From: Gemmatimonadota bacterium
GTDB lineage: Bacteria > JAAXHH01
Direction: 5' to 3'
Assembly: GCA_009838645.1 (NCBI GenBank)
Contig: VXRC01000024.1
Span: 18,494 to 82,493 of the forward strand
DNA length: 64,000 nt
Shown: positions 7,547-37,242 of the stretch, piece after piece
Position numbering within the stretch: position 1 is the first letter of the stretch
Layout: the number at the start of each line of letters is the position of its first letter
Made by a program: the position numbers and the translations under genes
Notes under the pieces: generated by a model
Database searches by the model: none
Told to the model about the DNA's origin: nothing
The model's input: the letters and a program-made list of their open reading frames with translations, nothing else

Positions 7547-7617
7547 TCGATCGCGACCAGTGGGCAGTCGTCCAGCCATCAGCCGGCCAGTCGGCCATCG
7601 AAACCTGCGTAATCGCA

Positions 7618-8235
7618 TTGAAGAACACGGAGGCCCGCACGCAACGACTCGAAGACCATCCCGACCGGCTGAAGTGGAACGCAAGGTACCTGGCGCCGAA
7701 GCGCTTGGCGCCCAAGGGTTTCTGCCCGCTGTACGACCGGGCGGCGGTCCTGGGATATCCGGACGGTCCCGTACTGGAACTCGCCTGCGGCCTGTCGAAC
7801 CAGGCCCTCGCCCTGGCCGGCGACGGACGCGACGTGCTTGCTGTCGACATATCAAACGTGGCCCTGGACCGTCTGCGTACGGAGGCGGCGAAAAGGGGCA
7901 TCGGGTCCCGACTGACCTGCGTGGAAGCGGACCTGGTTTCCTGGCGTCCGCCCGTCGGTCGCAAGTTCGCGCTCGTGATCTGCGTGATGTACTGGGAGGA
8001 GGCGGTCTTCGACTATGCCTGGCCCGTGGTCGCCGACGGCGGACTCATCGCCTGGCAGGGCTTTACCCTGGACCACCTGAGGTACCGGCCCTCGCAGAAC
8101 CCGGACTGGTGCTTCAAGGCGGATGAACCCGCGAGTCGGCTACCCGCCGGCGAGTATACCGTGCTGCACGAAGAGGACGTGGACGAAGGCCACCGGGTGA
8201 TCCGGCGCATGGTGGCCAGGAGGAACCGAAGCTGA
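7618..8235 (+). CDS. Class I SAM-dependent methyltransferase
   Basis: 205 aa with a glycine-rich SAM motif (VLELACGLSNQALALA) and an acidic residue (VLAVDIS) typical of the Rossmann MTase fold. Confidence 0.55.
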   Translation: MKNTEARTQRLEDHPDRLKWNARYLAPKRLAPKGFCPLYDRAAVLGYPDGPVLELACGLSNQALALAGDGRDVLAVDISNVALDRLRTEAAKRGIGSRLTCVEADLVSWRPPVGRKFALVICVMYWEEAVFDYAWPVVADGGLIAWQGFTLDHLRYRPSQNPDWCFKADEPASRLPAGEYTVLHEEDVDEGHRVIRRMVARRNRS

Positions 8236-8285
8236 GGTCCGGCCAACTGACATCCGGCCAGCTGAGATCCAGCGAGGAGACGTAC

Positions 8286-9206
8286 ATGCAGGTACAACGA
8301 ATCGCCATATTGAGCCCGGGAGAGATGGGCCATTCCGTGGGGCGGTGCCTCCAGGCGGGCGGCTTCGACGTGGCCACCTGCCTGACGGACCGGAGCGAAC
8401 GAACTCGCACGCTGACGGCGGCCGCGGGCATCCGGGACGAGCCGGACCTGGACAAACTGGTCCGGGACACGGACCTGATCCTGGCCATCCTCGTGCCCGA
8501 CCAGGCCCGGGCCCTCGCCGGCCAGGTGGCGGAGGTGATGAAACGGACCGGGTCCTCGAGACGGACCGGGTCCTCGCCGGCCTACGCCGACTGCAACGCC
8601 ATCTCCCCGGATTCGGCGCGGGAGATCGACCGGGTCGTCACCGCCGCCGGAGGCCGCTTCATCGACGCGGGCATCATCGGCGGTCCACCCGGCGCGGACG
8701 AAAAGACGCGCTTCTACGCTTCCGGCCCCCACGAGGCCATACTCACGCAACTGGACGGCCACGGCATCCTCGTCCGGCCGCTGGGCGGCGAAGTGGGCCG
8801 GGCGTCGGGCATCAAGATGTGCTATGCCTCGGTCACCAAGGGGACCTCCGCCCTCTATGCCGCGGCGCTGACGGCCGCCGAAGTCATGGACCTGAGCGAG
8901 GAACTGCTGGCGGAATTCGCCGAAAGCCAGGGGCAGCGTCTCAAGGCGATGGGCGGCGTAAACAGCCTGTCGGCCAAGGCCTTCCGCTGGATCGGTGAAA
9001 TGCAGGAGATCGCGGCGACGTACGAACGGGCCGGGGTATCGCCCGGTTTTCACGAAGGCGCCGAGCACATCTTCCGCCTCATCGCCGAAAGTCCCATTGG
9101 CCACGAACGGCCCGAGACCGTGGACCGCAACCGCACCCTGGAGGAAACCGTGGCCATCTTTGCGGACGAGGCGCGGCGGCGGGCACGCGAATCCGGGAAA
9201 GGGTAA
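8286..9206 (+). CDS. NAD(P)-binding oxidoreductase: 6-phosphogluconate-dehydrogenase-like N-domain with a DUF1932-type C-domain
   Basis: N-terminal Rossmann motif (RIAILSPGEMGHSVG), family-like C-terminal domain. Contains a short in-frame duplication (RTGSSRRTGSSP, 8547-8587). Confidence 0.5.
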   Translation: MQVQRIAILSPGEMGHSVGRCLQAGGFDVATCLTDRSERTRTLTAAAGIRDEPDLDKLVRDTDLILAILVPDQARALAGQVAEVMKRTGSSRRTGSSPAYADCNAISPDSAREIDRVVTAAGGRFIDAGIIGGPPGADEKTRFYASGPHEAILTQLDGHGILVRPLGGEVGRASGIKMCYASVTKGTSALYAAALTAAEVMDLSEELLAEFAESQGQRLKAMGGVNSLSAKAFRWIGEMQEIAATYERAGVSPGFHEGAEHIFRLIAESPIGHERPETVDRNRTLEETVAIFADEARRRARESGKG

Positions 9207-9304
9207 GCGCCATCCCTTCGATCCAGACCATCGGCATACCGGTCCGCAGCGTCAACTGGGTCCGGGTCTTCCCCACGCTGGACGGAGTCGGCCGGGACTG
9301 CCTG

Positions 9305-10999
9305 GTGGCCGTGATGGGCCAGCAGGCGGCGGGATTCACCGTCGTGAAAATCGATCCGGCCACCGGCGCGACGTCCCAGGCGACTTCGCCCGATCCCACC
9401 GCCAATTTCCCCACGGGCGCCTTGCGCACCCGAGATGGCCGGATCTACGTCGGCGCCGCCTACGCCGGGCATCTCCACTGTTACGATCCCAAGACGGAAC
9501 AGTTGGACGACCTGGGCGCCATCAACCTGCCCGACGATACCTTCCCCTGTAATATGGATGAAGACGAAAACGGCGTAATCTGGATCGGATGCTACGGGTC
9601 GGCCGGCCTGACGAGCTACGACCCGGCGTCCGGTGCGTTCACCCGCCACGGGCGGATGGACGAGACCGACATGTACTGCTATCCCTACGTGGGCGCCGGG
9701 GGAACGGTCGCCTGCAACATCAGGATGACCCGTCCGCACGTGGTCGTCTACGATCCAGTATCGGGCCGGCGCGAGACCGTGGGACCCGTGGTGGTCACGG
9801 AGGACGGGGGATCGCTTAACCTGTACAGGGCGGCCGACGACCAACTCTACATCCGGTCGACCGCAGGCGATTTCAGACTGGACGGCTTCGAGGCCAAACC
9901 CGTTGCAGCCCTCCCCGACCCGGCGCCGCCGCTGACGATGTCCGACGGATCCACGGCGGATTTCGCTGACCGGGAAATCCAGATGTTCCGCGAGATGGCC
10001 ATTACCCGGCCGGAATCCGGCGGGACGCGCATCTTGCCCGTAGCCTACGAGTCCGCGGGCAGCGAGATCTTCCTGGTGCATCGCGGGCCCGACGACAACC
10101 TGTACGGTTCGAGCATCCTGCCTCTGCACCTGTTTCGACATGATCCGTCCACCGGCGCCATGGACGACCTGGGCATATGCACCACCGCCACCGGGGAAGC
10201 CTATTCCATGGCCAACATGGACGGCAGCCTCTACATCTGTTCCTACCCGGGCGCCGTGCTGTCCGTCTACGATCCTGCCCGGCCCTATCACTTTGGAAAG
10301 GACACCGGCAGCAACCCCCGGGATCTCGGCCGCATGGACGAATTCTCCTATCGACCACGTTCCATGGTCGCAGGTCCGCTTGGCCGGGTGTGGACGGCCT
10401 CCGTACCGAACTACGGCATGTGGGGAGGACCGTTGTCCTGGTACGATCCGGTCGCGGATGCGTTCGGTACCTATCGCGATATCGCCGGGGAAGCCAGTTG
10501 CTGGTCACTGGCCTGGCTGGAGGCCCATGGCCTGCTGGCCATCGGGACGACGATCGACGGCGGCACCGGCACGCAGCCGCGCGTAGACCAGGCGTCGCTG
10601 TTCCTCTGGGATTACGAGAAGGAGGAAAAGGTGTGGGAAGGCCGGCTTCCGGTAGAGGTTACGGCCGTCGACGCGCTGGCCGTCATGGACGGCGGCCTGC
10701 TATGCGGGACGGCCCGTGCGGGATCCGGGTCCATCCTATTCGATTTCGATGCAGGTGACTGGCGATTCGTGCACCTGGCTTCCCTGCCGGGTGGTCGCTC
10801 GCTGGAAGGTGGCCTCCAGACCGGTCCCGATGGCGGGATATACGGATTTACGACCGAATGTTTCTACCGTTTCGATGCCGCCGCCGGCGTTGTGACCACG
10901 ATTCACGAAGCGCCGTCCGCCTTCCAGAATCCCGGTCCGATGTACGGGGACGGTGTCTACTTCACGAAGAAACACGAGCTGAAGAAACTGGTGTTCTGA
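9305..10999 (+). CDS. Hypothetical beta-propeller repeat protein; no signal peptide evident
   Basis: 564-aa ORF starting at GTG (an in-frame ATG follows 3 codons later). A YDPxxG-like motif recurs about every 50 aa (CYDPKTEQ, SYDPASGAF, VYDPVSGRR, VYDPARPYH, WYDPVADAF). Confidence 0.45.
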   Translation: MAVMGQQAAGFTVVKIDPATGATSQATSPDPTANFPTGALRTRDGRIYVGAAYAGHLHCYDPKTEQLDDLGAINLPDDTFPCNMDEDENGVIWIGCYGSAGLTSYDPASGAFTRHGRMDETDMYCYPYVGAGGTVACNIRMTRPHVVVYDPVSGRRETVGPVVVTEDGGSLNLYRAADDQLYIRSTAGDFRLDGFEAKPVAALPDPAPPLTMSDGSTADFADREIQMFREMAITRPESGGTRILPVAYESAGSEIFLVHRGPDDNLYGSSILPLHLFRHDPSTGAMDDLGICTTATGEAYSMANMDGSLYICSYPGAVLSVYDPARPYHFGKDTGSNPRDLGRMDEFSYRPRSMVAGPLGRVWTASVPNYGMWGGPLSWYDPVADAFGTYRDIAGEASCWSLAWLEAHGLLAIGTTIDGGTGTQPRVDQASLFLWDYEKEEKVWEGRLPVEVTAVDALAVMDGGLLCGTARAGSGSILFDFDAGDWRFVHLASLPGGRSLEGGLQTGPDGGIYGFTTECFYRFDAAAGVVTTIHEAPSAFQNPGPMYGDGVYFTKKHELKKLVF

Positions 11000-13626: not shown

Positions 13627-13775
13627 GGGGAGGCGGCTCCTTGGAATCGTTGCGGGCACATGAAATCGTTGCGGACGGCGGTAATTTTGAAGTTAACAGT
13701 CGTGTCGGGGTAGGTTATATTATAAGTAACAAAACGCAAGCGAATTGCGCTGCATCTGAAACGAGGAGGAAGACC

Positions 13776-14351
13776 ATGATTCATACACTGGCGCGGTGGT
13801 GCTTCGCCCTGGCCCTGGTCGGCCTGGTGGCGGAGTCCGCCGACGCGCAACCCCGTAACTTGGCGCCGAGGCTGAGTGAGGCCGCACCGGAGTTCAGCCT
13901 GCAGGACGTCAACGGCGAAACCGTCAACTTCGCCGATTACAAGGGCAGCAAGAACCTGCTTGTGGTCGTCGACCGCGGCTGGATAGGCTACTGGTGACCC
14001 CTTTGCTTACGGCAACTGGGGCAGTTGCAATCCGATTACGAACGCATAGCAGCACTCGACACCGAATTACTCTTCATCAATCCCGAAGACCTCGACCAGA
14101 CCAGGGACTTCGTCGCCAAATCGAAAGTCACGCGGGAAGCGCTTTCCTTCCGCGTTCTCGCCGACCCGGATCGGGCCATTCCCACCAAGTTCAAGATCCA
14201 GAAAGCGACCGACAAGGGGACGGAAGTCATTCCCACGGCCTTCATCATCGACAAGGAAGGCGTCCTTCGGTTCAAGTACGTGGGTTCGGATCCCTTCGAC
14301 CGGCCGTCGACAGACAGCCTGGTGGAGATCCTGGATATGATCGAAGGGTAG
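13776..14351 (+). CDS. Secreted thioredoxin-fold redoxin (AhpC/TSA, TlpA/ResA-like); putative selenoprotein with in-frame UGA (13995-13997) at the first position of W-C-P-x-C (W-U-P-L-C)
   Basis: ORFs 13641..13997 and 14025..14351 share one frame and are separated only by TGA. The read-through product has a signal peptide (MIHTLARWCFALALVGLVAESADA) and redoxin motifs (APEFSLQDVNGETVNFADYKG...IPTAFIIDKEGVL...YVG). The RBS GAGGAGG precedes the ATG at 13776. Confidence 0.55.
14012..14028 (+). promoter_or_regulatory. Putative bacterial SECIS-like hairpin (GCAACUG-GGG-CAGUUGC), 15 nt downstream of the in-frame UGA
   Basis: Perfect 7-bp inverted repeat with a G-rich apical loop, read directly from the sequence. 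The spacing from the UGA is in the bacterial SECIS range. Confidence 0.35.
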
Positions 14352-14414
14352 TAAGTCGGTTTTGAAGTCGAGATGAAGTTTGATTGAGGTAGAGTTTACG
14401 AAGCGAAGTTGAAG

Positions 14415-14834
14415 TCAGGACACCAGATTCCTGATCTCGTCGGACACGAATTCGACCAGGATCTGGTTTTCCAGCCAGACTTCGTAGAGCGGTCCGCCCA
14501 GCCTCGGCCGAAAGCGGTGGTGAAGTCCATGCGATTCCGCCACCGCTTTCAAATGGTCGAGGCTTTGCTGCGTTTCAAGCAGAAAATGGGTCGAATTGAA
14601 ATTCTGTACCTCTTCAACCGGTCTGAATTCCGCGGCGTGTTCCCCGGGGCAGAGCAGGTAGATGTTCGGGATAAATTCGATCATCTCACCCGACTGACAG
14701 TCCCAAGCGCATACCCAGGCACCTTCCATGGTCCTCGATGTGAATGGATATACTGATCCATACGTCAATTCTGCCAGAACCCTCGCTGCCCTTTCGGGTT
14801 TTGATGCCGTAATGGAAAGGTGTTTGATCTTCAT
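14415..14834 (-). CDS. VOC (glyoxalase/bleomycin-resistance/dioxygenase) family protein
   Basis: 139 aa with a VOC-like N-terminus (MKIKHLSITASKPERAARVLAEL). Lies in a lower-GC block. Confidence 0.4.
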   Translation of the reverse strand: MKIKHLSITASKPERAARVLAELTYGSVYPFTSRTMEGAWVCAWDCQSGEMIEFIPNIYLLCPGEHAAEFRPVEEVQNFNSTHFLLETQQSLDHLKAVAESHGLHHRFRPRLGGPLYEVWLENQILVEFVSDEIRNLVS

Positions 14835-14890
14835 ATGGCGATGCGACTCTATATGGGTGTGTAATCTGCAGAACGCTCACAAGCGTTGCG

Positions 14891-15214
14891 TTATTCACGC
14901 GGTTCAGTATGGATAAGAAAGACCTTCGTTTCAAATCCTCCTCTTTTCTCCTTCTTCGCGTTTCTCATTTTCTCGAGTTGTATCGGATCAATTCCCATTC
15001 GAGACGCAATAGCGTATACCACCTCCAGGATATCAACTAATTCCTCGGCGTCATTGGAAGTGTTGAATTCCCCGACTTCCTCCACAAGTTTGCGTCTGAG
15101 TTCATGAATATACTCGGCCCTGTCGAGAACTCGGGTCGTCGGACGATCGCCCGCAGCAGCAATGATATCGGGAATCCTGTCCCGCACAAGCTTGTTGTGG
15201 TCAACTCGTTTCAT
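14891..15214 (-). CDS. MazG-like nucleoside triphosphate pyrophosphohydrolase (PRA-PH fold)
   Basis: MKRVDHNKLVRDRIPDII...EELVDILEVVYAIA, characteristic of small all-alpha NTP-PPases. GGAAGG lies 8-13 nt upstream of the ATG at 15212-15214. Confidence 0.5.
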   Translation of the reverse strand: MKRVDHNKLVRDRIPDIIAAAGDRPTTRVLDRAEYIHELRRKLVEEVGEFNTSNDAEELVDILEVVYAIASRMGIDPIQLEKMRNAKKEKRGGFETKVFLIHTEPRE

Positions 15215-15239
15215 TGCTGCACCTTCCACGGCGTAATTG

Positions 15240-15623
15240 TCAAAACCGAACCTGGCCTGCAGGTGTCACGTCTGCGAAGTCACCGAGGATATCATTATAG
15301 TGAGCGATAATCTGCTCTGCTGTAAGTACATCGGAATCGAAAGTACTGTGTCCATCCTTGACTAGCGTTATCGAATATCCTGCAATACGAGCATGATGGC
15401 AGGTCGTGCTGATACAGTTCTCGGTTTGAACGCCTGTAATGAATAACCTGCCGATCTCCTTTTCATTCAAAATAGATGCTAACTGAGCTTCGCAAAACGC
15501 ATCCGGAGTTCGTTTCTGAACGACGATATCTCCCTTCTGCGGGGAAACCCGTTCGTGTATATGCCATCCTGGTGAATCCGTCCGATCCGGGTCGCCCGGT
15601 TTTCCGTTGTGTACGTTGCCCAA
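15240..15623 (-). pseudogene. Isochorismatase-family hydrolase fragment (C-terminal ~2/3 only; the N-terminal catalytic Asp region is missing)
   Basis: WHIHERVSPQKGDIVVQKRTPDAF...LFITGVQTENCISTTCHHARIAGYSITLVKDGHST matches the C-terminal part of YcaC-like isochorismatases. The upstream gene ends 9 nt away, leaving no room for the N-terminal ~60 aa. Confidence 0.4.
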
Positions 15624-15632
15624 TGTCGTTTC

Positions 15633-16559
15633 CTATATGCATTCCACGATGCGGTCTTCAATCTCAGCCAGCTCTTCGAATTGCCCTACCGTGCTTTTCC
15701 AGTCTTCCTGCGTGGCATAGTACTGCGCCAGTCCGTATGACTCGGCTTTTTTGACCAACCATTCCGCGGTTTCAGTTTGGTCTGCCGACTTCATGAAATC
15801 GGCCGCATCGAGGCAACGACGGGCGCCGATCGGCAGGACGAAGTGGACCAGCATGGCCGCGAATCCTTTGGGCGGTATACCGCGGATCACCTCGGCGGCC
15901 ATCCGGAACGCCTGCGAACCTCCAAAAAAGACCGGACCGGAGGGGGCGGCATGAATCAGTTCTCGTGCGTTTTCCAGCGTAGCCTTCAGCATGTCTTCGG
16001 TCGATACCTGACGGTCTTCCCGGAAATCGCCGCGCAGGGTGTATGCACTTGTTGCGTAGCCGAGATCAGTGGCATTCCACGCACGCAAAAGGTCATCGAC
16101 CGGCAGTACCGCGAATGGATAGAATTGCGGGTCATGCACCTGTACACGGTCGCCTTCGAGTTTCAGAGCTATAATGAAATGGTCTCCGCCACGTTTCAGC
16201 CGGTGATTCGGGTCATAGGGCAGGAAACCCAGGTCCAGGGGACCAAGCAGTACGGGGCCGTTCTTCAGGTTAGCTTTTAATGCTTCAAGAGCCGATTCAA
16301 CATCGTCACCCTCCCACTGTGTACACGTCCAACCCAGAATGCTGAGCGCACGGGACATCCCGCTGTTAGGATTCAGGTCGGCGTGGCTAGGGAAGAACAG
16401 TGGAGTATCAAACTGCAGGAACAGCTCGCCGAACGGCATACCCGTCATGCATTCCAACAGGCCGGGTTCCGGAAGATCGGCCATGCCGGCGTGCTGCAGA
16501 CACATGTGAAGGCTGTTGCTGTAACAGTAATGGCTGTTCCCGGTATAAGCGATGTGCAT
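15633..16559 (-). CDS. Papain-like fold protein, BtrH_N/DUF4872-like (tentative)
   Basis: 308 aa with an N-terminal Cys-containing motif (HYCYSNSLHMCL) reminiscent of BtrH N-terminal/peptidase-C39-like domains. Assignment by recollection only. Confidence 0.35.
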   Translation of the reverse strand: MHIAYTGNSHYCYSNSLHMCLQHAGMADLPEPGLLECMTGMPFGELFLQFDTPLFFPSHADLNPNSGMSRALSILGWTCTQWEGDDVESALEALKANLKNGPVLLGPLDLGFLPYDPNHRLKRGGDHFIIALKLEGDRVQVHDPQFYPFAVLPVDDLLRAWNATDLGYATSAYTLRGDFREDRQVSTEDMLKATLENARELIHAAPSGPVFFGGSQAFRMAAEVIRGIPPKGFAAMLVHFVLPIGARRCLDAADFMKSADQTETAEWLVKKAESYGLAQYYATQEDWKSTVGQFEELAEIEDRIVECI

Positions 16560-16705
16560 TTGCTGATCCTCTCGTCAAATATCGCAATGGATCGAATAAA
16601 CCCTCATTGTTTAAATGGGATTCATCCAGACCAATATACTATATATTTGTTTAGTATATGTCAAGAAATACGAGAGGAAACTTCCAGGTTTTTGCAGAAA
16701 AACAT

Positions 16706-17698
16706 TCAGGGTATTCCGAGCGTCCTACCGATCCTGTCCACCACGTCGTCGATCCTTTCCAGGTACCGCATCGCCGCCTTGTAGGTGGGCATGAGTACCC
16801 GCTGCTCATCCACCTCGCCATCCAGGTACTGGTCGGCCATCCAGAGATAGATGGAGAGTTCGTAGATCGTCCATTCAGGATCTTTCGGGGTGTTGCCGTA
16901 TCCTTCATAGAAAGCGGCCGGTGTGGGGCCGATCGGCTTCAACCGGAAGATCTCCAGCCTGGCCAGGTCCCAGGTCGGATCGCCGGACCAGGCGTACTCC
17001 CAGTCGAGCCAGGCGGAACACCTCCAGTGGCCGGTTTCCTCGTGAACCAGCACGTTCCAGGGATGGGGATCGTTGTGCAGCAGGACCAGGGGTCTTTCGT
17101 TCAGCAGGGGTACCGTTTGCTTCAGTACCCGCTTCATCGACGACAGTTCGAAACGAAGTCCCGGGTCCCGCTTCAGCAGGCTCTCCGCATGCCGCACGGC
17201 CTGGTGGTAGTGAAAGTCACCCCAGGTTCCTTCGTCAAAAGGCTGAATGCGTTCTCCGACGATCAATCCCGGGCAGCGATCGGAAAGCTGGATGGCGTGC
17301 ACTTTTCGTAACGCGGCGCCGACAGCCCGCCAGGCCTGAGCGCGCTGTCCATCGGTCAGGTTATCGACAACGTTCCCCAGAAGGGATCCGGGTTTGAATT
17401 CCATCAGCACGGCGCATCCGTCTTCATCATCGTGATGCGCGACAATGGCCGGCACGGGTACGCCATGCTTCGATAACAAATCGTGCAAATAAAGTTCTTT
17501 TTCGACCCTTTGCAGGTCGTCATCTGTAGCGTAAGGCCATTCGTATTCGCGGAGGATGTAGCGTGTGTCGTCCCGGAGTTTTACGAGGGACGTTCGATTG
17601 GTCACGCCGGTATTGAGCGGCTCGACAGATCGGATGGGATTACGGCTTTGCCCGGCTTCGGCGAGTAGTCTTGGAAGGAATGCAGGAAGCTGGGACAT
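16706..17698 (-). CDS. Aminoglycoside phosphotransferase (APH)/choline-kinase-family small-molecule kinase
   Basis: Catalytic-loop and DFG-like motifs (LLHNDPHPWNVLV, DWEYAWSGDPTWDLA) typical of the APH fold. Confidence 0.65.
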   Translation of the reverse strand: MSQLPAFLPRLLAEAGQSRNPIRSVEPLNTGVTNRTSLVKLRDDTRYILREYEWPYATDDDLQRVEKELYLHDLLSKHGVPVPAIVAHHDDEDGCAVLMEFKPGSLLGNVVDNLTDGQRAQAWRAVGAALRKVHAIQLSDRCPGLIVGERIQPFDEGTWGDFHYHQAVRHAESLLKRDPGLRFELSSMKRVLKQTVPLLNERPLVLLHNDPHPWNVLVHEETGHWRCSAWLDWEYAWSGDPTWDLARLEIFRLKPIGPTPAAFYEGYGNTPKDPEWTIYELSIYLWMADQYLDGEVDEQRVLMPTYKAAMRYLERIDDVVDRIGRTLGIP

Positions 17699-17713
17699 GA
17701 GGTATGCACGCTT

Positions 17714-18019
17714 TCAGTTCGATCGGTTTAGCACGCGTACTTCAGTCTTCAATCGTTCTCCCAGCCGATCCCTTTGCAACTCCAGGTCATAGTGGGTCTG
17801 CAGATTCAGCCAGAATCGATCCGTAGTTCCGAAATAGCGAGCCAGTCGTAAAGCGGTGTCGGCCGAAATGGCGCGTTTGCCGTGCACGATCTCGTTTATG
17901 CGGCGCGGGGGAACTGAAATATCCACGGCAACACGGTACTGACTCAGACCTAGTGGTTCGAGAAACTCTTCCTTGAGGATCTCTCCGGGATGAATCGGAG
18001 GCATAATAGCAGCAGGCAT
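17714..18019 (-). CDS. higA: HigA-family antitoxin-like XRE HTH protein (no HigB partner present)
   Basis: MPAAIMPPIHPGEILKEEFLEPLGLSQYRVAVDISVPPRRINEIVHGKRAISADTALRLARYFGTTDRFWLNLQTHYDLE is a textbook HigA/VapI N-terminus. AGGAG lies 8 nt upstream of the ATG at 18017-18019. The APH gene starts 16 nt downstream. Confidence 0.7.
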   Translation of the reverse strand: MPAAIMPPIHPGEILKEEFLEPLGLSQYRVAVDISVPPRRINEIVHGKRAISADTALRLARYFGTTDRFWLNLQTHYDLELQRDRLGERLKTEVRVLNRSN

Positions 18020-30133: not shown

Positions 30134-32995
30134 TTATTCAGGCAGGTAGTAGGTCTCTTCCGCAGGCCGCAGGGGACGGTTGAGCCAGAGGGGCCGGCGC
30201 AATCCGCCCGGCCCGGGCGCGGGGCGCGTCCGGGCCAGCCATTCGCGGTACACCTCGAAGGACTTCTCCGTATCCACCATCACGTCCCCGTAGGCGTCCT
30301 CTTCGCGGGCCTTTTCGATCCGGACCTTCTGGTGCCAGCAGTGCATTCCGCTTATTGGATCGGGGTGCACGGGGAAAGTGATGTTCTGGTGCACGCCGCC
30401 GTCCCGCCAGAAGATGCGGGAGGAGTCGCGGTCGGCGCTTTCGTAGGGCCGGATTCCGTCCATCACTTTCATGCGCCACTTGCCGCCGTCCGCCTCCTGG
30501 ATATCCACCAGGTTGACGGACCAGCGATTGCCGTCCGCGTCCTGCTTGCGCCGCCAGCGGCCCAGGTGGTGGGAGCAGGCGACCACGCCGGGCTTCATGG
30601 CCTCGGTGACCCAGACACGGTCCACGAAATGGCCGATCTCGGTGGTCACCCGGACCAGGTCGCCCGTGGTGATGCCCATCCGGTCGGCGTCCTGGCGGTG
30701 CATCCACACGGGGTTGCGGTTGGAGATCTCGTTGAGCCACTTGGCGTTGCCCGACCTTGAGTGGATCAGCGTGGGCAGCCGAAAGGTGGGCACCAGCGGG
30801 AACTCACCCTTCTCGCGGTCGAGCTCGTCGGGGTGCACGTGGCTCTTGATGTAGGTGGGGATGGCGTACTCCGGCCAGCCCCAGTCCACCATGGTCTGGG
30901 AGTAGAATTCCTGCTTGAGCGACGGCGTGGGGAAACCCGCACGCGGCGCGCCGTCCACCATGACGCCTACGGTCTTGCCGTCGGCGACCAGGGTATTCGT
31001 CTCCGGGTCGACCTCAGCGCCCGCGACGGCCTCGTCATCCAGCTTCTTGAGGTGCTTCGCGTAGGCCGTCTTCTCCACCTCGAAAGCGCCGTACTTGCGC
31101 ATGTAGTCCAGGGTGGACAGCCCTTCTTCCGCGGCGGCCTCGGGCAGCCCGTCCACGTGGTCGAAGATGTAACGGTAGTATTCGTCGACGGTGATCTTCT
31201 CGCCGGGCCGGTAGGGCGAGATGAAATGGTCCCTGATCCCCAGGCTGCCGTCGGGATCGATGCGCCAGGACAGCTCGATCCAGAACTCGTCCTCTTCCCA
31301 CACCTCGCCCGGGTTGGCCTCGTAGGTGAAGGTCACCGGATCGCCCATGCGCCGCCGCGCCTCGCGCAGGACGGGCTGGCGGAAACCGATCCAGGTGCCC
31401 GAGTGGGTCTCGTAGCTGATGATGTCGTGGCGTTCGCTGGCGTGGCCCATGGGCAGCACGTAGTCGGCGAAATAGGCCGTCTCGTTCCACGTGGGAGTCA
31501 GGGCCGCGTGCAGCCCCACCTTCTCCTCGTCGCGCAGCGCCTCGACCCAGGTGAACCCGTCGGGGTATGTCCACACGGGATTGAACACCCGGGTGAAGTA
31601 GACGGCCAGCTTCCCACGCCCCTCTTTCAGGAAATGGGGCAGGAGGAAGCTCATCTCGTAATGGGAGAGGGGGTATTCCTTCGGGAAATGCAGTTCGTTC
31701 CAGAACTTCTGGTCCGGGGGATGGTCGAAGACGTTGGGCTTGAACTTGTTCCACCCGCTCGGCGAGGTCCCGCCCTCCGTGCCGACGCTGCCGGTAAGGA
31801 CGTTCAGGAAGTGGAGGCACCGCGCCACGGCCCAGCCGCCGGCGTTGCCGCTGCCCGCGCTGCGCCAGTTGTGGGTGGCGAACCGCGATCCCGCCCGTCC
31901 GATCTCCCGGGCTATCTCCACGATATGCGCCGCCGGCACGCCGCTCTCCTGCTCGGCGAACTCGGGGGTGTATTCGCTGTAGACCCCCTTGAGCGCCTCG
32001 ATGAAACGTTCGAAGGTGCGCGGCGCGTCCGGATGTTCCTTCTCCAGGTAGGTCTGCCAGTTCACCCACGTCTTCATGAACGCGCCGTCGTAGAGGCCGT
32101 CCTGCAGGATGACGTTGGCCATGGCCAGCAGCACCGCGGCCTCGCTGCCCGGATAGGTGGGCATCCAGTGGTCGGCCATGCTGGCCGTGTTGGACAGCCT
32201 CGGGTCCATGACGGCGAGTTTTGCCCCCTTCATCATGCCCTCGATGATGCGCTGGGCGTGGGGATTGAAATAGTGTCCCGATTCCAGGTGGGCGCTGATG
32301 AGGAGGATGAACCGCGCGTTGGCGTGATCCGGCGACGGCCGGTCGAAGAAATGCCAGAGGGCGTAGCCGAAGCGGGCGCCCGACGAGCAGATGTTGGTGT
32401 GGCTGTTGTGCCCGTCCACGCCCCAGGCCTTGAGCACCCGGTCGATGTAGCCCTCGGCGCCGGGCCGGCCCACGTGGTAGGCGATTTCGTTGTTCGCGCC
32501 CTGCTGCAGCCGTTCGCGGATCCGGCCGGCGATGTCGTCCAGCGCGTCGTCCCAGGACACCCGTTCCCACTCGCCGCTCCCCCGGGCGCCCGACCTGCGC
32601 ACGGGATAGAGGATGCGGTCGGTGTCGCGGATCTGGTTGATGGTCGCCGGACCCTTGGCGCAGTTGCGCCCCCGGCTGGCCGGGTGGTAGGGATTGCCCT
32701 CGAACTTGCGGACCTCCATCGTCTCCTTGTCGACGTAGCTCAGCATTCCGCATCCGGCTTCGCAGTTGAAGCAGGCCGTGGGCACCACCATGTAGCGTTT
32801 GGCCTGTTGCCGCGGCCAGTCCTGCGCCTCGTACTCCACCCAGTCGTCCCACTGGTCCGGCGGCGGGTAGTCCGTGAGCGCGCCGCCCTCGGTCAGGCTC
32901 GGGAGATCAGGCCCGTCCTCTTCGTGCAGGTTGGGGATCAGGCCGATCTTCTCAGCCAGCGATTCGATCAATCCCGGTTTATGGCGTATGGACAT
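30134..32995 (-). CDS. Molybdopterin (bis-MGD) oxidoreductase catalytic subunit, DMSO-reductase superfamily; no Tat signal
   Basis: 953 aa. N-terminal FeS-0 cysteine motif (CFNCEAGCGMLSY) after a ~75-aa extension lacking an RR motif. Molybdopterin-binding domains throughout. Confidence 0.75.
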   Translation of the reverse strand: MSIRHKPGLIESLAEKIGLIPNLHEEDGPDLPSLTEGGALTDYPPPDQWDDWVEYEAQDWPRQQAKRYMVVPTACFNCEAGCGMLSYVDKETMEVRKFEGNPYHPASRGRNCAKGPATINQIRDTDRILYPVRRSGARGSGEWERVSWDDALDDIAGRIRERLQQGANNEIAYHVGRPGAEGYIDRVLKAWGVDGHNSHTNICSSGARFGYALWHFFDRPSPDHANARFILLISAHLESGHYFNPHAQRIIEGMMKGAKLAVMDPRLSNTASMADHWMPTYPGSEAAVLLAMANVILQDGLYDGAFMKTWVNWQTYLEKEHPDAPRTFERFIEALKGVYSEYTPEFAEQESGVPAAHIVEIAREIGRAGSRFATHNWRSAGSGNAGGWAVARCLHFLNVLTGSVGTEGGTSPSGWNKFKPNVFDHPPDQKFWNELHFPKEYPLSHYEMSFLLPHFLKEGRGKLAVYFTRVFNPVWTYPDGFTWVEALRDEEKVGLHAALTPTWNETAYFADYVLPMGHASERHDIISYETHSGTWIGFRQPVLREARRRMGDPVTFTYEANPGEVWEEDEFWIELSWRIDPDGSLGIRDHFISPYRPGEKITVDEYYRYIFDHVDGLPEAAAEEGLSTLDYMRKYGAFEVEKTAYAKHLKKLDDEAVAGAEVDPETNTLVADGKTVGVMVDGAPRAGFPTPSLKQEFYSQTMVDWGWPEYAIPTYIKSHVHPDELDREKGEFPLVPTFRLPTLIHSRSGNAKWLNEISNRNPVWMHRQDADRMGITTGDLVRVTTEIGHFVDRVWVTEAMKPGVVACSHHLGRWRRKQDADGNRWSVNLVDIQEADGGKWRMKVMDGIRPYESADRDSSRIFWRDGGVHQNITFPVHPDPISGMHCWHQKVRIEKAREEDAYGDVMVDTEKSFEVYREWLARTRPAPGPGGLRRPLWLNRPLRPAEETYYLPE

Positions 32996-33025
32996 GTGGT
33001 CTTTTCCATCCTCAATCGTTGCACA

Positions 33026-34681
33026 TTAGCTCAACGGGATGTCCTGCGGCGCCCTGACCCAGACGTACTCCGTCGCGTAGAGACCGATCAGCACGCCCGC
33101 GCCTGCAACGGCGAGCAATGCTTCACCGCCGATCCAGGCCAGTACGACGGGCACGAGATTGCCTATCGCGATGCCAAGGATCCAGAAGTATCCCCGGTAC
33201 CGGCCCCTCACGATGGCCTGCACGGCTTTCCGGGCGTCGGCCGTGGGATGGGGCGTCAGCATCTCGGACGCGATCACCAGCAGGTTCAGGATGACGGCGG
33301 CGATCAACGTAGTCCGCACGAAGGCGGTCCACGCCTCGCCGGGCGCGCCGAACAGGAGCGCCAGGGCGAACACCGCCGCGCCGGCCAGCACCGTGTGGAG
33401 CAGCATGTGCAGGACCAGCGTCGGGCTCTGCCAGAAATCCCGCCCCTTGGCCTGGGCGAAGAGAAAGGCCGTGTAGACCGCCGTGATGACCGCCAGCGCG
33501 GCCGTGACCCAGCCGATGATTTCGGCCGCCCCGGTTCGGCCGGTCCACATGGCCGCGGCCCAGAGCGTGAGCGCCAGACCATATAGGGTCAAGGCGTAGC
33601 CGCCGAGCACGAGCCAGGATTTCCACTGCGGGCGGAACAGCACGTAGAGAAAGCGTTTGGGCCGGGTCAGGTCGCTGACGAGAAGGATCGTCGTGGCCAG
33701 GAGGAACGTCAAGGCCACGGTGCAGCCGGTCCACGCGAGCACGGGGTCGACGGCATACCCGAGGACCGAGGCCGCGAAGGGGAGGAGGAAGGCCCCAGCC
33801 GAAATGGCCTTGGTCCACACGTAGGCCGCCACGTCGTTGCCCCACAGGACGCCCTTGTCCGGCGCGTCGTAGACCCGGCGCGCCGCGGCGTCTTTTCCTT
33901 TTTGCCCGCTTCCGGATACGGCTCCCGACTGGCCGCCGGCGCTGGTCTGGCCGCCGACGCTGGTCTGGCCGCCGGGCTGTCCGTCCTGTCCCGCCCCGCC
34001 GAGTTGCCGGATCATGTCCTCCGGGTCCGCCTTGGCGGTCCGTTCCTCGATGTACCGGGCGAAATGGCCGACGCCGTCCGACTGCGAACTCCACATGTAG
34101 TTGTCCGACGTCGCGGTCTCCCCCGGTGTCAATGAAGCCTCGTCGCCATCGATGTAGTACAGGCGGGGCTTCGTGTCCTTCTCGATCTTTCGCACCGTCA
34201 CCTGTTCCTTCGCGAGCAACTGGGAGATCTCCGTCGATCCATCGTCCATGTCGCCGGAAATGATGGCGTGTTCCGGGCAGACGTTCACGCAGGCGGGTTC
34301 GAGACCGATGTCCACCCGGTGGGCGCAGTAGTTGCACTTGGCGGCCGTATGGGTGTCCGGATCGATATACAGGGCATCGTAGGGACAGGCCTGCATGCAG
34401 CCCTTGCACCCGATGCATCGCCGCGGATCGAAATCGACGATGCCGTCCTTCCGGGTGTACAGCGCCGTCACCGGGCAGATCTCCACGCAAGGGGCGTCCT
34501 CGCAGTGGTTGCACCGCATGACGGAGAAATGCCTGGCCGTATTCGGGTACGTCCCTTTCTCGATGTACTTCACCCAGGTCCGGTTGACGCCGAGGGGCAC
34601 CTCGTGTTCGGCCTTGCACGCGACGGTGCAGGCATGGCACCCGATGCACTTCCTGTTGTCGATGATGAAACCGTATTGCAT
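33026..34681 (-). CDS. Fused four-cluster [4Fe-4S] ferredoxin subunit plus NrfD/PsrC-like polytopic membrane anchor
   Basis: Four Cys clusters in the first ~150 aa (CIGCHACTVAC, CNHCEDAPCVEICP, CIGCKGCMQACP, CNYCAHRV...CVNVCP). A G/Q-rich linker follows (encoded by repeats at 33900-34000), then about 8 TM helices. Confidence 0.7.
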   Translation of the reverse strand: MQYGFIIDNRKCIGCHACTVACKAEHEVPLGVNRTWVKYIEKGTYPNTARHFSVMRCNHCEDAPCVEICPVTALYTRKDGIVDFDPRRCIGCKGCMQACPYDALYIDPDTHTAAKCNYCAHRVDIGLEPACVNVCPEHAIISGDMDDGSTEISQLLAKEQVTVRKIEKDTKPRLYYIDGDEASLTPGETATSDNYMWSSQSDGVGHFARYIEERTAKADPEDMIRQLGGAGQDGQPGGQTSVGGQTSAGGQSGAVSGSGQKGKDAAARRVYDAPDKGVLWGNDVAAYVWTKAISAGAFLLPFAASVLGYAVDPVLAWTGCTVALTFLLATTILLVSDLTRPKRFLYVLFRPQWKSWLVLGGYALTLYGLALTLWAAAMWTGRTGAAEIIGWVTAALAVITAVYTAFLFAQAKGRDFWQSPTLVLHMLLHTVLAGAAVFALALLFGAPGEAWTAFVRTTLIAAVILNLLVIASEMLTPHPTADARKAVQAIVRGRYRGYFWILGIAIGNLVPVVLAWIGGEALLAVAGAGVLIGLYATEYVWVRAPQDIPLS

Positions 34682-34701: not shown

Positions 34702-35175
34702 TCAGCCGGAAAGCGTTCCGTACTGGCCGCCGTAGAAGACCAGTGGGCGCCCTTGCCCGGCGCCGCCCGCAACGATCTCGCCGATGAAGATGTCGTGATC
34801 CCCGCCCGGCAGTATTTCTGTGACGCGGCAGTCAACGTAGGCCAGCGCTTGCTCGAAAACGGGCGAACCCGTGGCCTCGTTCCGGTACGCGATGCCTGAA
34901 AAGTCCTTTGGACCGTGCTTTGCGAAACGCACGGAGATTTCTTCCTGTTCTTCGGTCAGAATGTTGACGGCGAAGCAGTCGCTGGCCCTGAGGCAGGTGT
35001 TCATCTGGGCCTTCACGTCCACCGATACGAGGATGAGCGGGGGATCCAGCGAGAGGGAAGCCACCGCATTGGCGGTCATGCCCTGCGGCCTGTCCTCGTA
35101 GCAGGTGGTTACGACGGTCACGCCGGTCGCGAAATGTCCCATGATCCGCCGTTGTTCCATTTGATCAAAAGCCAT
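34702..35175 (-). CDS. Flavin reductase-like FMN-binding protein (HpaC/NADH:flavin oxidoreductase family)
   Basis: MAFDQMEQRRIMGHFATGVTVVTT...GMTANAVASLSLDPPLILVSV is a typical flavin-reductase domain. An alternative upstream start lies at 35280. Confidence 0.6.
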   Translation of the reverse strand: MAFDQMEQRRIMGHFATGVTVVTTCYEDRPQGMTANAVASLSLDPPLILVSVDVKAQMNTCLRASDCFAVNILTEEQEEISVRFAKHGPKDFSGIAYRNEATGSPVFEQALAYVDCRVTEILPGGDHDIFIGEIVAGGAGQGRPLVFYGGQYGTLSG

Positions 35176-35299
35176 TTTACCACGCTTGTCAGGGTGTTTT
35201 TCGCGATCGGGCAACTGTCTCCCACTGTGATGCATCGTCCCGTCAAAGTCAATGTATTTAAAGATGATCCCGTGTTTCATTCCCGGTGGCGTCTCAGGG

Positions 35300-35911
35300 C
35301 TACAGCCGAATCACCACGGAAGCGGTTACGGGTATCCATCGGGCGCTTTCATCGAACACATTGCGCGCATGGTTGTACCTCGCCTCCAGGGACAGCCCCA
35401 CGCGTTCGCTGACCGTCAGGTTGACCCCCAGGCCGAACACGAACATGAACGAATGGTCGCTGGTGCCGGAATCCGCATCTTCACCCGTGACAAGGCGATC
35501 GGATTGGCCCGTAGCGCGATCGGGTCGACCCGTGGCCCTGGCCCATCCCACGCCCCCGTGGCCGTAGAACCCCACGGGATCCGCGATCCCCTCAATCAGC
35601 AGGCCCACATTGCCACCCGTCAGCGTTTTATCGGCAACCGATGCCGACCCCTCGTTAGCCATCCCTTCATTCGAATGCGAAAACGCCGAGCCTTCAATTC
35701 CGAAACGACTGTGATGGCCCTCGAGCAACAGGAAGTAACCTTCATCGACGGGTATCGCCAGGCCAGCGACCAGAAAAGGGCCGGCCGAAGCCGTACCGTC
35801 CGCCAGGTCACCGATGGGCATGGCGGGTCCGCCTCCCAACCTGACATTCGCCTGACCCTCGGCCAGCAGCGGTGAAATCATACACGCGATCGCCAACCAG
35901 ATAATACGCAC
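35300..35911 (-). CDS. Outer-membrane beta-barrel protein (OmpA-like/OmpW-like barrel)
   Basis: GTG start at 35909-35911, preceded by AAGGAG. Signal peptide (RIIWLAIACMISPLLAEGQA), C-terminal aromatic residue, alternating hydrophobic beta-strand pattern. Confidence 0.5.
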   Translation of the reverse strand: MRIIWLAIACMISPLLAEGQANVRLGGGPAMPIGDLADGTASAGPFLVAGLAIPVDEGYFLLLEGHHSRFGIEGSAFSHSNEGMANEGSASVADKTLTGGNVGLLIEGIADPVGFYGHGGVGWARATGRPDRATGQSDRLVTGEDADSGTSDHSFMFVFGLGVNLTVSERVGLSLEARYNHARNVFDESARWIPVTASVVIRL

Positions 35912-36206
35912 GTGAGAACTCCTTTCATGCCGCATCAAATCGCATCTGCGCATACACCGGCAAGAACGGACCGGTACCTGCTACAGGCTCGTTGAGCTAC
36001 AGGATCATTGAGCAGGTTCCTTTCGAAAGAAGAAACCTAATTCTGAATTTTGTGGGAATAGAATCGGCGACGGCGGAGTCTAATCGGTAGGCAGCGGCAA
36101 CCGCTCGGATCGATCTCCGGCACTTTCGTGAGGCGTTAACGGACCGCGCCGGCCGACAGTCCGCCCGATGCTGACCATATTGTTCCGGCCATTCGAGGAA
36201 AGCGGG

Positions 36207-36797
36207 ATGAGGGAAGATGCCTTGACGGACGAAGCACTGGTCGACGCCGCCCGCGATGGCAGCGAGGACGCCTTCCGCACCCTGGTGGAACGATACGAAG
36301 GCCGCGTGGCGTCCGTCGTGATCCGCATGCTGGGGAACACCCCCGAAGCCGAGGACGCGGGGCAGGAGACTTTCATCCGGTTCTATCGAGGCTTGCATGG
36401 ATTCCGCGGTCAGGCGTCGGTCGGCACCTACCTGACGCGGATCGCCATCAACCTGTCGCTCACCGAACTGAGAATACGCCGGCGCCGTTCGATCTTCGTC
36501 CCCTTCACACCGCCGGGCAGGGAACACGACGCGCCGGAACTGGAATATGCCGACCCGGCGGCCAGCGCAGAATACGACGACACGGCCGACCGGATTCAGG
36601 CGGCGCTGAACCGATTGAAGCCCGAATTCCGTTCCGTGATCGTACTCCGGTTGATAGAGGGCTACTCGACGAAAGAAACCGCCGAGATCCTGGGCTTGCC
36701 CGTCGGGACGGTACTGTCCCGCCTGAGGAGGTCCCAGGAGAAACTGAAACGCATGCTTATTTCCTCTAACAGGGAGCTTGTCCATGAAACGGTCTGA
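36207..36797 (+). CDS. ECF-type RNA polymerase sigma factor (sigma-70 family)
   Basis: Region-2 and region-4 motifs (FRTLVERYEGRVASVVIRMLGN, YSTKETAEILGLPVGTVLSRLRRSQEKL). GAGGAAAGCGGG precedes the ATG at 36207. Confidence 0.75.
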   Translation: MREDALTDEALVDAARDGSEDAFRTLVERYEGRVASVVIRMLGNTPEAEDAGQETFIRFYRGLHGFRGQASVGTYLTRIAINLSLTELRIRRRRSIFVPFTPPGREHDAPELEYADPAASAEYDDTADRIQAALNRLKPEFRSVIVLRLIEGYSTKETAEILGLPVGTVLSRLRRSQEKLKRMLISSNRELVHETV

Positions 36798-37242
36798 ACT
36801 GGATCTGATGTACCGGTCGCTGGATGCGTCCCTGACGCCCGGTGAACAAAGCCGACTGGACGAGGCGTTGCGGCGCGATCCCGGCCTGCGGGACGAATAC
36901 GAGCGACTGGTCCGGCTGCGAAGCCAGGTCGAAAACCTGGAATCGCCCTCGTTCCGGGCGGATTTCTCCCAACGCGTCATGGAACGCCTGGCGGCGGAAT
37001 CCACGGTTATTCCGGCGTCGAATCCTGAAGGTGGGACAACGCCTGAATTCGAGGACGCGCTGTCCCTCATGTTCCGCAAAGTGGCGGTGGCCGCTTCGGT
37101 CGCTGCCGTCCTGCTGTTGACCTACAACCTGGCCACGTCCGACAGCGTCTCCATCACCACGTCGTTCGGACTGACCGAGGAACTGTATCCTGAAGACCTG
37201 TACGACGCGCGGATCGCGCTGGAATCGGAGGGCGAATTATGA
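36784..37242 (+). CDS. Putative anti-sigma factor (single TM)
   Basis: Overlaps the sigma-factor stop. About 150 aa with one TM helix (VAVAASVAAVLLLTYNL); position typical of a cognate anti-sigma factor. Confidence 0.45.
   Translation: MKRSELDLMYRSLDASLTPGEQSRLDEALRRDPGLRDEYERLVRLRSQVENLESPSFRADFSQRVMERLAAESTVIPASNPEGGTTPEFEDALSLMFRKVAVAASVAAVLLLTYNLATSDSVSITTSFGLTEELYPEDLYDARIALESEGEL

Follow-up and report, generated by a model that had tools for sequence, protein, structure and literature searches.

The question raised by the locus described here is on which side of the membrane a molybdenum enzyme works when neither of its genes carries an export signal, and on what substrate such an enzyme would act. 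The stretch analysed, referred to below as the window, comprises 64,000 nucleotides from a Gemmatimonadota bacterium (assembly GCA_009838645.1, contig VXRC01000024.1, positions 18,494 to 82,493), and the enzyme is encoded by two adjoining genes: A, for the catalytic subunit, and BC, in which a ferredoxin module and an NrfD-type membrane anchor are fused (Table 1). By sequence the pair belongs to a widespread and already recognised family, the fused SoeBC or PSRLC3 type, of the SoeABC kind, and we consider it probable that the two polypeptides form a cytoplasm-facing sulfite:quinone oxidoreductase of this type. An earlier inspection of the letters and reading frames (the sequence-only reading) had preferred a cytoplasm-oriented SoeABC-type enzyme to the periplasmic Psr, Ttr or Phs reductases, and this preference is borne out by the lack of twin-arginine translocation (Tat) signals, the positive-inside charge bias, scores below every equivalog cut-off, the placement in a Tat-less clade and the layout shared with Chlorobium.

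As for the catalytic subunit, the open reading frame (ORF) together with the Pfam domains Molybdop_Fe4S4 (residues 69-121), Molybdopterin (127-528) and Molydop_binding (737-816) confirms the 953-residue protein with a bis(molybdopterin guanine dinucleotide) cofactor that had been claimed. The Cys columns of the first cluster, FS0, are kept in nearly all of 37 aligned relatives and throughout the clade of Tat-less, fused members. The best solved relatives of A are PsrA of T. thermophilus (2vpw_A, E = 9.5e-38) and also ArrA (6cz7_A). The molybdenum (Mo) ligand, to be identified according to the sequence-only reading, is predicted from the alignment with PhsA, DmsA and PsrA to be Cys203: in the 37 sequences its column holds Cys in Salmonella PhsA and Ser in E. 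coli DmsA, which are the Mo ligands of these enzymes, and it aligns with the Cys in 'vslCtap' of T. thermophilus PsrA. Moreover, Cys203 is invariant throughout the Tat-less clade, and so is the active-site segment GHNSHTN[IV]CS. Some relatives have other residues in the Cys203 column, namely Asp in P0245 (Myxococcota; locus L081, 5001-7877), Ala in P0261 and Gly in P0285; these proteins may use another ligand or may be without the cofactor, or the segment may be misaligned.

The partner had been described as a four-cluster ferredoxin fused to an NrfD/PsrC-like domain, and in fact a single ORF of 551 residues holds Fer4_11, NrfD and 16 cluster Cys. Fer4_11 and related Pfam families are found in residues 1-145, the ferredoxin domain matches PsrB (2vpw_B, E = 1.3e-50) with the alignment running, as in PsrB, from residue 2, and all the 16 cluster Cys are invariant in 55 homologues. 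Pfam NrfD lies at residues 277-540 (E = 3.5e-19), where the AlphaFold model shows eight transmembrane (TM) helices over residues 280-546, with a predicted local distance difference test score (pLDDT) >90 over most of them. The NrfD domain gave no match to the PDB by single sequence or by profile, and fold comparison alone worked, Foldseek returning PsrC (2vpw_C, TM score 0.80, root-mean-square deviation 3.4 A) and also ActC chains of alternative complex III. The ferredoxin domain is poor in the same model (pLDDT about 30), so that the relative placement of the two domains is unreadable. The G/Q-rich linker of the sequence-only reading is present here but is confined to this lineage, since linkers vary from 2 to 79 residues across 70 family members and the G/Q-rich form is found in the closest relatives only.

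Table 1. Coordinates in the window of the enzyme genes, their parts and the two neighbouring genes on the same strand
Feature	Position	Strand	Size, property or basis
A, catalytic subunit with molybdenum-bis(pyranopterin guanosine dinucleotide) (Mo-bisPGD), SoeA / PSRLC3 PsrA-like	32995..30134	minus	953 aa, no Tat signal; Pfam
A, N-terminal extension, 74 residues, conserved	32995..32774	minus	without twin-arginine (RR) motif, without hydrophobic h-region
A, FS0 [4Fe-4S] motif C75-x2-C78-x3-C82-x29-C112	32773..32660	minus	alignment
A, Cys203 codon, predicted Mo ligand (GHNSHTNICSSGARFGY)	32389..32387	minus	alignment column
BC fusion, ferredoxin and NrfD/PsrC-type anchor	34681..33026	minus	551 aa; Pfam
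BC, ferredoxin (SoeB/PsrB-like) domain, residues 1-190	34681..34112	minus	four [4Fe-4S] motifs, without signal peptide
BC, linker (about residues 191-275) with a low-complexity stretch rich in G, Q and S	34111..33857	minus	pLDDT <50
BC, NrfD/PsrC-type heme-less quinone-binding anchor, 8 TM helices, N-terminus predicted cytoplasmic	33856..33029	minus	Pfam, AlphaFold, Foldseek
Flavin_Reduct (HpaC/FerA-like) gene	35280..34702	minus	192 aa; Pfam PF01613, E = 1.9e-41
OMP_b-brl outer-membrane beta-barrel gene	35953..35300	minus	217 aa; Pfam PF13505, E = 2.4e-7

The pair might be thought a conventional periplasmic reductase of the Psr/Phs/Ttr type whose export signal was missed, considering that the PDB and NCBIfam entries most similar to it are periplasmic enzymes and that Tat-bearing relatives exist at 33-49% identity. 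However, the periplasmic Psr, Phs, Ttr, Arr and Dms reductases have a twin-arginine signal on the catalytic subunit, whereas A has none. No RR or Tat-like motif occurs in the first 120 residues of A or BC and neither begins with an h-region, so the claim that both the Mo and the FeS subunit lack a Tat signal stands. Upstream of A a stop is met 10 codons before the ATG, and upstream of BC 50 in-frame codons lead to a stop, with no ATG, GTG or TTG in either interval; therefore a cryptic Tat signal read from an alternative upstream start, which had been sought as a refutation, is excluded for both genes. Moreover, no TorD/NarJ-type chaperone gene adjoins the fused loci, while the Tat-bearing relatives have one.

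The topology of BC points in the same direction. Counted with the AlphaFold helix boundaries, Lys and Arg number 16 on the ferredoxin side of the anchor (the end of the linker, loops 2-3, 4-5 and 6-7, and the C-tail, which contributes 0) against 1 in the opposite loops, and the means over 70 fused homologues are 14.3 against 0.4. The ferredoxin domain is joined to TM1 without an intervening hydrophobic segment, and wherever a loop residue of the anchor is invariant, as in RPQWKSW and YTAFLFAQAKGRDFWQSP, it is on the ferredoxin side. From the charge bias and these invariant residues a cytoplasmic location of the peripheral subunits is strongly predicted; the quinone site would then face the N side (the cytoplasmic side) of the membrane, and the anchor would be inverted relative to PsrC. 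A ferredoxin fused N-terminally to an 8-TM domain, and placed inside by the Lys/Arg bias, hardly suits a periplasmic reductase.

The phylogenetic placement agrees with this orientation. In a neighbour-joining tree of 36 sequences with 200 bootstraps, which gives a coarse placement since it is distance-based and lacks the characterised SoeA of A. vinosum and A. aeolicus, the query falls in a 96%-bootstrap clade of 15 members, all Tat-less and fused, and the clustering within a periplasmic clade that had been looked for as contrary evidence is not seen. It is enclosed by a wider clade with 100% bootstrap that consists of long-form relatives, and clear Tat signals are seen in some of these (P0247, P0298, P0261); the typical Tat-bearing Psr/Phs-like proteins are about 30% identical to A. 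None of the NCBIfam equivalog cut-offs for PhsA, TtrA, ArrA, DmsA, NarG or others is approached, the scores against cut-offs being 191/694 for PhsA, 188/778 for DmsA/YnfE, 122/1600 for ArrA and 116/1750 for TtrA, and the FeS part scoring 186 against the TtrB cut-off of 416. With the whole clade Tat-less, no start codon upstream of either gene and the Lys/Arg bias, the periplasmic reading is effectively refuted and we give it next to no weight.

The Tat-bearing long-form relatives (P0247, P0298 and the Sulfurovum mangrovi plasmid locus) have the long A and a PPxxxW element in common with the query and group with it at 100% bootstrap, but they are only 33-49% identical to it, and they have an RR signal on A and separate B and C genes, neither of which is found in the query. 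Those examined carry clear RRxF[LV]K motifs, and a Nitrate_red_del/TorD-family chaperone and an extra 4Fe-4S protein are encoded downstream. In the sister group as sampled here (L088, 3687-7034; L084, about 7001-10052; P0298; P0261, which is L090, 5001-7748) the twin-arginine signal goes together with separate B and C, and in L088 and L084 a TorD/NarJ-type chaperone gene and the extra 4Fe-4S protein, of about 360 residues, lie downstream. A sister group with a Tat signal and with separate B and C suggests that a topological flip gave rise to the fused clade without Tat signals.

The N-terminus of A deserves attention in this respect. The extension that had been noticed ahead of the FS0 motif is there, the first Cys being C75, so that 74 residues precede it, and its consensus over 78 orthologues reads xxxxKPxxIExIAEKLxLIPNLH...LTEPGxLTxxPPPEQWDDWxEYEA. 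The PPxxxW part is also found behind the Tat signals of relatives P0247, P0298 and P0261; being common to Tat-bearing relatives, it makes the extension a family element and not a degraded leader alone. In the same 78 orthologues the peptide KPxxIExIAEKLxLIPNLH at residues 5-24 (32983..32924) is strongly conserved, with the I-E and A-E positions at 88-100%, and it is missing from T. roseum and RHA1. The orthologues mostly have two basic residues as a pair within positions 1-12, but neither RR nor a hydrophobic core. The N-terminal peptide might be a vestigial signal, or a segment binding a chaperone or a partner; NarG offers a precedent for such an N-terminal vestigial signal or chaperone-binding segment.

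How widespread is this architecture? In a species scan with one genome per species, at least 598 species genomes carry a relative of A, and the best 80 loci of these carriers were examined. They are 68-98% identical to the query and include Chlorobium, Saprospiraceae, Cyclobacteriaceae, Pyrinomonadaceae, Pirellulaceae, Flavilitoribacter nigricans and Lutibacter aestuarii, with no canonical Proteobacteria among them. A word-indexed search found at least 8,000 homologues, of which the best 120, from KSB1, Calditrichota, Bacteroidota, Acidobacteriota and SAR324, are full length and 72-98% identical. Further relatives come from plasmid records, namely those of Thermomicrobium roseum (64%), Rhodococcus jostii RHA1 (59%) and haloarchaea (56-59%), and tblastn of the plasmids detected no canonical soeABC. 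The closest homologues are labelled variously Gemmatimonadota, Latescibacterota or 'bacterium'. In all 64 loci in which both parts were found, ferredoxin and NrfD form one ORF upstream of A, mostly directly so, and the same fused layout is seen in the T. roseum, RHA1, Natrinema, P0241, P0244 and P0245 loci. The B-C fusion is thus the norm of the family: the sequence-only reading, which called it uncommon, is right for the iron-sulfur molybdoenzymes in general but not within this family, where fusion is the rule. When clustered at 50% the family collapses to essentially one representative, which matches the published remark that the SoeA/bSreA lineage, cytoplasmic and Cys-ligated, collapses at 50% identity (PMC10100899).

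Some side observations concern the records of these relatives. Their source names are generic, such as 'molybdopterin-dependent oxidoreductase', 'formate dehydrogenase' or 'polysulfide reductase NrfD', and annotation-based surveys may under-count the clade as soeABC. The contexts of representatives P0264, P0277, P0313 and P0328 (40-56% identity) resemble frameshifted long-read assemblies and are uninformative. In an uncultured Cytophagia metagenome-assembled genome (L009, 7001-11963) the A gene is interrupted by an in-frame stop close to the 3' end, and its 3' fragment occurs two more times downstream; selenocysteine or an intein as the reason for the long match was rejected, the duplicated 3' fragment with its in-frame stop being probably an assembly artefact.

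Among known systems, PSRLC3 of green sulfur bacteria, which published work regards as the SoeABC of the Chlorobi, has a fused psrBC-like gene directly upstream of a psrA-like gene, as in the window, and in the PSRLC3-type loci of Chlorobium (L058-L060) neither protein has a Tat signal, again as in the window. A is 69-70% identical over residues 1-953 to its counterparts in Chlorobium sp. N1 and two other Chlorobiaceae genomes; in BC the identity is 68% for the FeS domain and 40-50% for the NrfD domain, and the sequences share a 100%-bootstrap subclade. The lengths are 953 against 955 residues for A and 551 against 517-521 for BC, the linker being longer and G/Q-rich here. That these Chlorobium loci are the published PSRLC3 we infer from their layout rather than from locus tags. 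Unlike the carriers of PSRLC3, the present host is not a phototrophic sulfur oxidiser, and no dsr or other sulfur genes lie nearby. Green sulfur bacteria are described as having '2 genes encoding PSRLC3' (PMC5473276), and PSRLC3 has been inferred to be a sulfite oxidase, standing beside A. vinosum SoeA in the tree of catalytic subunits of complex iron-sulfur molybdoenzymes (PMC9324843; PMC6338057).

The SoeABC enzymes themselves provide the second comparison. Purple and green sulfur bacteria are said to have their genes 'universally present' (PMC8232776, citing Dahl 2013). For SoeAB a position on the N side is 'hypothesized', SoeC being inverted (PMC8076601), and this location of the peripheral subunits and inversion of NrfD are also proposed in PMC10100899. 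The features of SoeABC are found again in the window: a Mo-bisPGD subunit that has FS0 and a predicted Cys ligand, a ferredoxin with four clusters, a heme-less 8-TM NrfD-type anchor, no Tat or Sec signal on A and B, and, as a prediction only, peripheral subunits on the N side. The characterised enzymes, that of A. vinosum by genetic and that of A. aeolicus by biochemical evidence, consist of three separate polypeptides, whereas B and C are one ORF here. A census of SoeC names Proteobacteria, Clostridia and Aquificae only, so that the fused clade was evidently not counted (PMC8076601). As for structures, PsrABC of T. thermophilus (PDB 2VPW-2VPZ) is the best solved relative of all three modules, with the same cofactor motifs and an aligned Cys ligand; however, PsrA (765 residues) is without the roughly 190 extra residues of the N- and C-terminal extensions of A, PsrB and PsrC are separate chains, and the anchor here has no detectable sequence similarity to PsrC. 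T. thermophilus PsrA is exported by the Tat system, and PsrAB is periplasmic.

On the substrate, the genes beside the family elsewhere are informative. Neighbour clustering of about 85 loci gave as recurrent neighbours fusions of Lactamase_B and Rhodanese, which are persulfide-dioxygenase-like (33 loci), SulP sulfate permease with STAS (28), Sulf_transp pairs of the YeeE type (13), Pyr_redox_2 proteins resembling sulfide:quinone oxidoreductase (SQR) (6) and DsrE_2 (6). For example, the R. jostii RHA1 locus has DsrE, TusA, metallo-beta-lactamase (MBL)-fold and ArsR genes, the T. roseum locus a CsoR-type repressor gene, the locus of a Myxococcota relative a persulfide dioxygenase-rhodanese fusion and Sulf_transp genes, and the Chlorobium locus TauE/SafE, DsrE-like, rhodanese and NIR_SIR genes. 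The recurrent neighbours are a gene set for sulfide and persulfide oxidation, a pathway that yields sulfite, for which an oxidase is required, and ends in sulfate, which has to be exported; they support sulfite as the substrate. Two other genes were met in these neighbourhoods. One, for an Mrp/NBP35-type Fe-S carrier ATPase, lies directly downstream of A and overlaps its end on pRHL3 of the actinobacterium RHA1 (L083, 9832-11001) and likewise in the haloarchaeon Natrinema halophilum (L086, 9032-10192); it could be a dedicated maturation factor for a cluster-rich enzyme, and it is not present in the window. The other encodes an outer-membrane protein (OMP) of the FadL/Toluene_X type and precedes the fused BC of Chlorobium sp. 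N1 by about 630 nt (L058, 3401-4786); no homology to the OMP gene of the window (35300-35953) appeared in the searches run, and the resemblance is possibly a coincidence.

The same neighbours have to be read with a second explanation in mind, that an enzyme of the same architecture and orientation oxidises quinol and reduces cytoplasmic polysulfide or sulfur, tetrathionate or thiosulfate. The nearest solved or named relatives, PsrA/PhsA, ArrA and TtrB, are reductases, rhodanese, DsrE and TusA neighbours handle sulfane sulfur, and the SoeA lineage includes the bacterial 'sulfur reductase' bSreA (PMC10100899). On the other hand, the genes most often found nearby are those for a persulfide-dioxygenase-like enzyme and for a sulfate permease or an exporter of the TauE type. 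Persulfide dioxygenase makes sulfite, and such exporters suit sulfate production better than sulfide production. Moreover, many carriers belong to aerobic groups, namely Saprospiraceae, Rhodococcus, Thermomicrobium and haloarchaea, and the Chlorobi orthologue is treated in the literature as a sulfite oxidiser (PMC6338057; PMC9324843). A reductase of sulfur compounds is accordingly judged unlikely.

Several points nevertheless weigh against a sulfite:quinone oxidoreductase in this organism. The sulfur genes seen beside the pair elsewhere are absent from the whole 64-kb window, where the neighbours are a flavin reductase, an OMP, an extracytoplasmic function (ECF) sigma factor and enzymes of sugar and amino-acid metabolism, so that the assignment for this organism depends on orthology alone. 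The relatedness to the SoeA of A. vinosum and A. aeolicus is indirect, as it is taken from published statements and trees and not from an alignment of our own, and the literature searched shows no genetic or biochemical test of any member of the fused clade. For the enzyme of A. aeolicus the first description was reportedly that of a sulfur reductase, so that neither direction nor substrate range is rigid in such enzymes. As to names, JGI/IMG gives only those of COG ('anaerobic selenocysteine-containing dehydrogenase', 'Fe-S-cluster-containing dehydrogenase component/...NrfD'), and the Tat-bearing relative P0285 is named thiosulfate/polysulfide reductase.

The lack of sulfur genes in the window also leads to a third explanation, in which a cytoplasm-facing Mo enzyme acts here on a non-sulfur substrate, such as another oxyanion or an organic compound tied to the flavin reductase. 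The flavin reductase gene ends only 20 nt upstream of the BC start and keeps this neighbourhood in the five closest genomes; moreover, the scores stay below the cut-off of every curated family. However, this gene is absent from all the other loci compared, and A shares 68-79% identity with its orthologues from other phyla (about 70% for Chlorobium), with GHNSHTN[IV]CS invariant, a conservation across phyla that argues for one conserved substrate. We thus regard a non-sulfur substrate as improbable, and the sulfite:quinone oxidoreductase of the SoeABC/PSRLC3 type is retained as the best explanation.

For such an oxidoreductase we infer that sulfite is the substrate, and we likewise infer in which direction the electrons flow and where the quinone site lies. 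Cytoplasmic sulfite would be oxidised to sulfate at the Mo-bisPGD centre of the 953-residue subunit, with Cys203 as the predicted Mo ligand, and the electrons would pass to FS0 and then through the four [4Fe-4S] clusters of the ferredoxin domain. Since the protons of both half-reactions would be taken from or released to the cytoplasm, the enzyme alone would not form a redox loop, and energy would be conserved on the downstream re-oxidation of quinol.

With this assignment, two generically annotated genes of an uncultured lineage obtain a likely function, the cytoplasmic oxidation of sulfite feeding the quinone pool, which extends a known family and leaves current concepts unchanged. Since B and C are covalently joined, the clade is convenient for asking whether an NrfD-type module can function upside down and whether sulfite oxidation by such enzymes conserves energy. 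A wider proposal can be put forward tentatively, as a possibility that we do not yet favour: the fused-BC clade may be an overlooked major form of the Soe type, spread over many bacterial phyla and the haloarchaea and arisen by a topological flip of a Tat-exported ancestor. If true, the RR signal and the TorD-type chaperone gene would have been lost in this flip and B would have been fused to C, and the natural fusion would be built-in evidence for the inverted NrfD module that is still called hypothetical in reviews. The carriers of the fused clade include groups of aerobic heterotrophs, in which, if the proposal is true, the clade would complete the SQR/persulfide-dioxygenase pathway by cytoplasmic sulfite oxidation.

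Regarding the genes around the pair, the order of transcription is OMP_b-brl, Flavin_Reduct, BC and A. The spacing between BC and A is 30 nt with a GAGGA-type ribosome-binding site; a PfkB kinase gene is convergent with the 3' end of A, and the ECF sigma-factor gene is divergent, upstream of the OMP gene. The flavin-reductase-like and OMP genes had been said to follow on the same strand: the strand is right, but both precede the enzyme genes in the direction of transcription, so that 'follow' is true in plus-strand coordinates only. The flavin reductase, which reaches no NCBIfam cut-off and is probably co-transcribed with BC, adjoins BC in the five closest loci only (L001-L004, L006), and the OMP gene is detected in three of these five (L001, L002, L006) and in no other compared locus. 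The two are lineage-specific neighbours of BC-A, and their candidacy as family partners was rejected on their absence from all but the five closest loci. In the longest ORF of the flavin reductase a stretch of 35-46 residues precedes the Pfam domain; the similarity to relatives begins at the internal Met36 (35175), and translation may therefore begin 105 nt downstream of the first start codon. A scan for promoters and terminators yielded nothing exceeding the shuffled expectation, and the Rfam and tRNA scans of the window found nothing.

Elsewhere in the window, a 360-residue Arg/Ser-rich ORF (35997-37079, minus) lies opposite the ECF sigma-factor gene (36168-36797, plus) and looks like a spurious antisense ORF of high-GC sequence. 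The first 2 kb of the window have a GC content of 0.51. Positions 13660-18000 form a low-GC island (0.52-0.55 against about 0.63 elsewhere), in which a roughly 2-kb stretch without an ORF of at least 150 residues (13660-15630) is followed by BtrH_N-like and APH phosphotransferase genes, and this island was possibly acquired horizontally.

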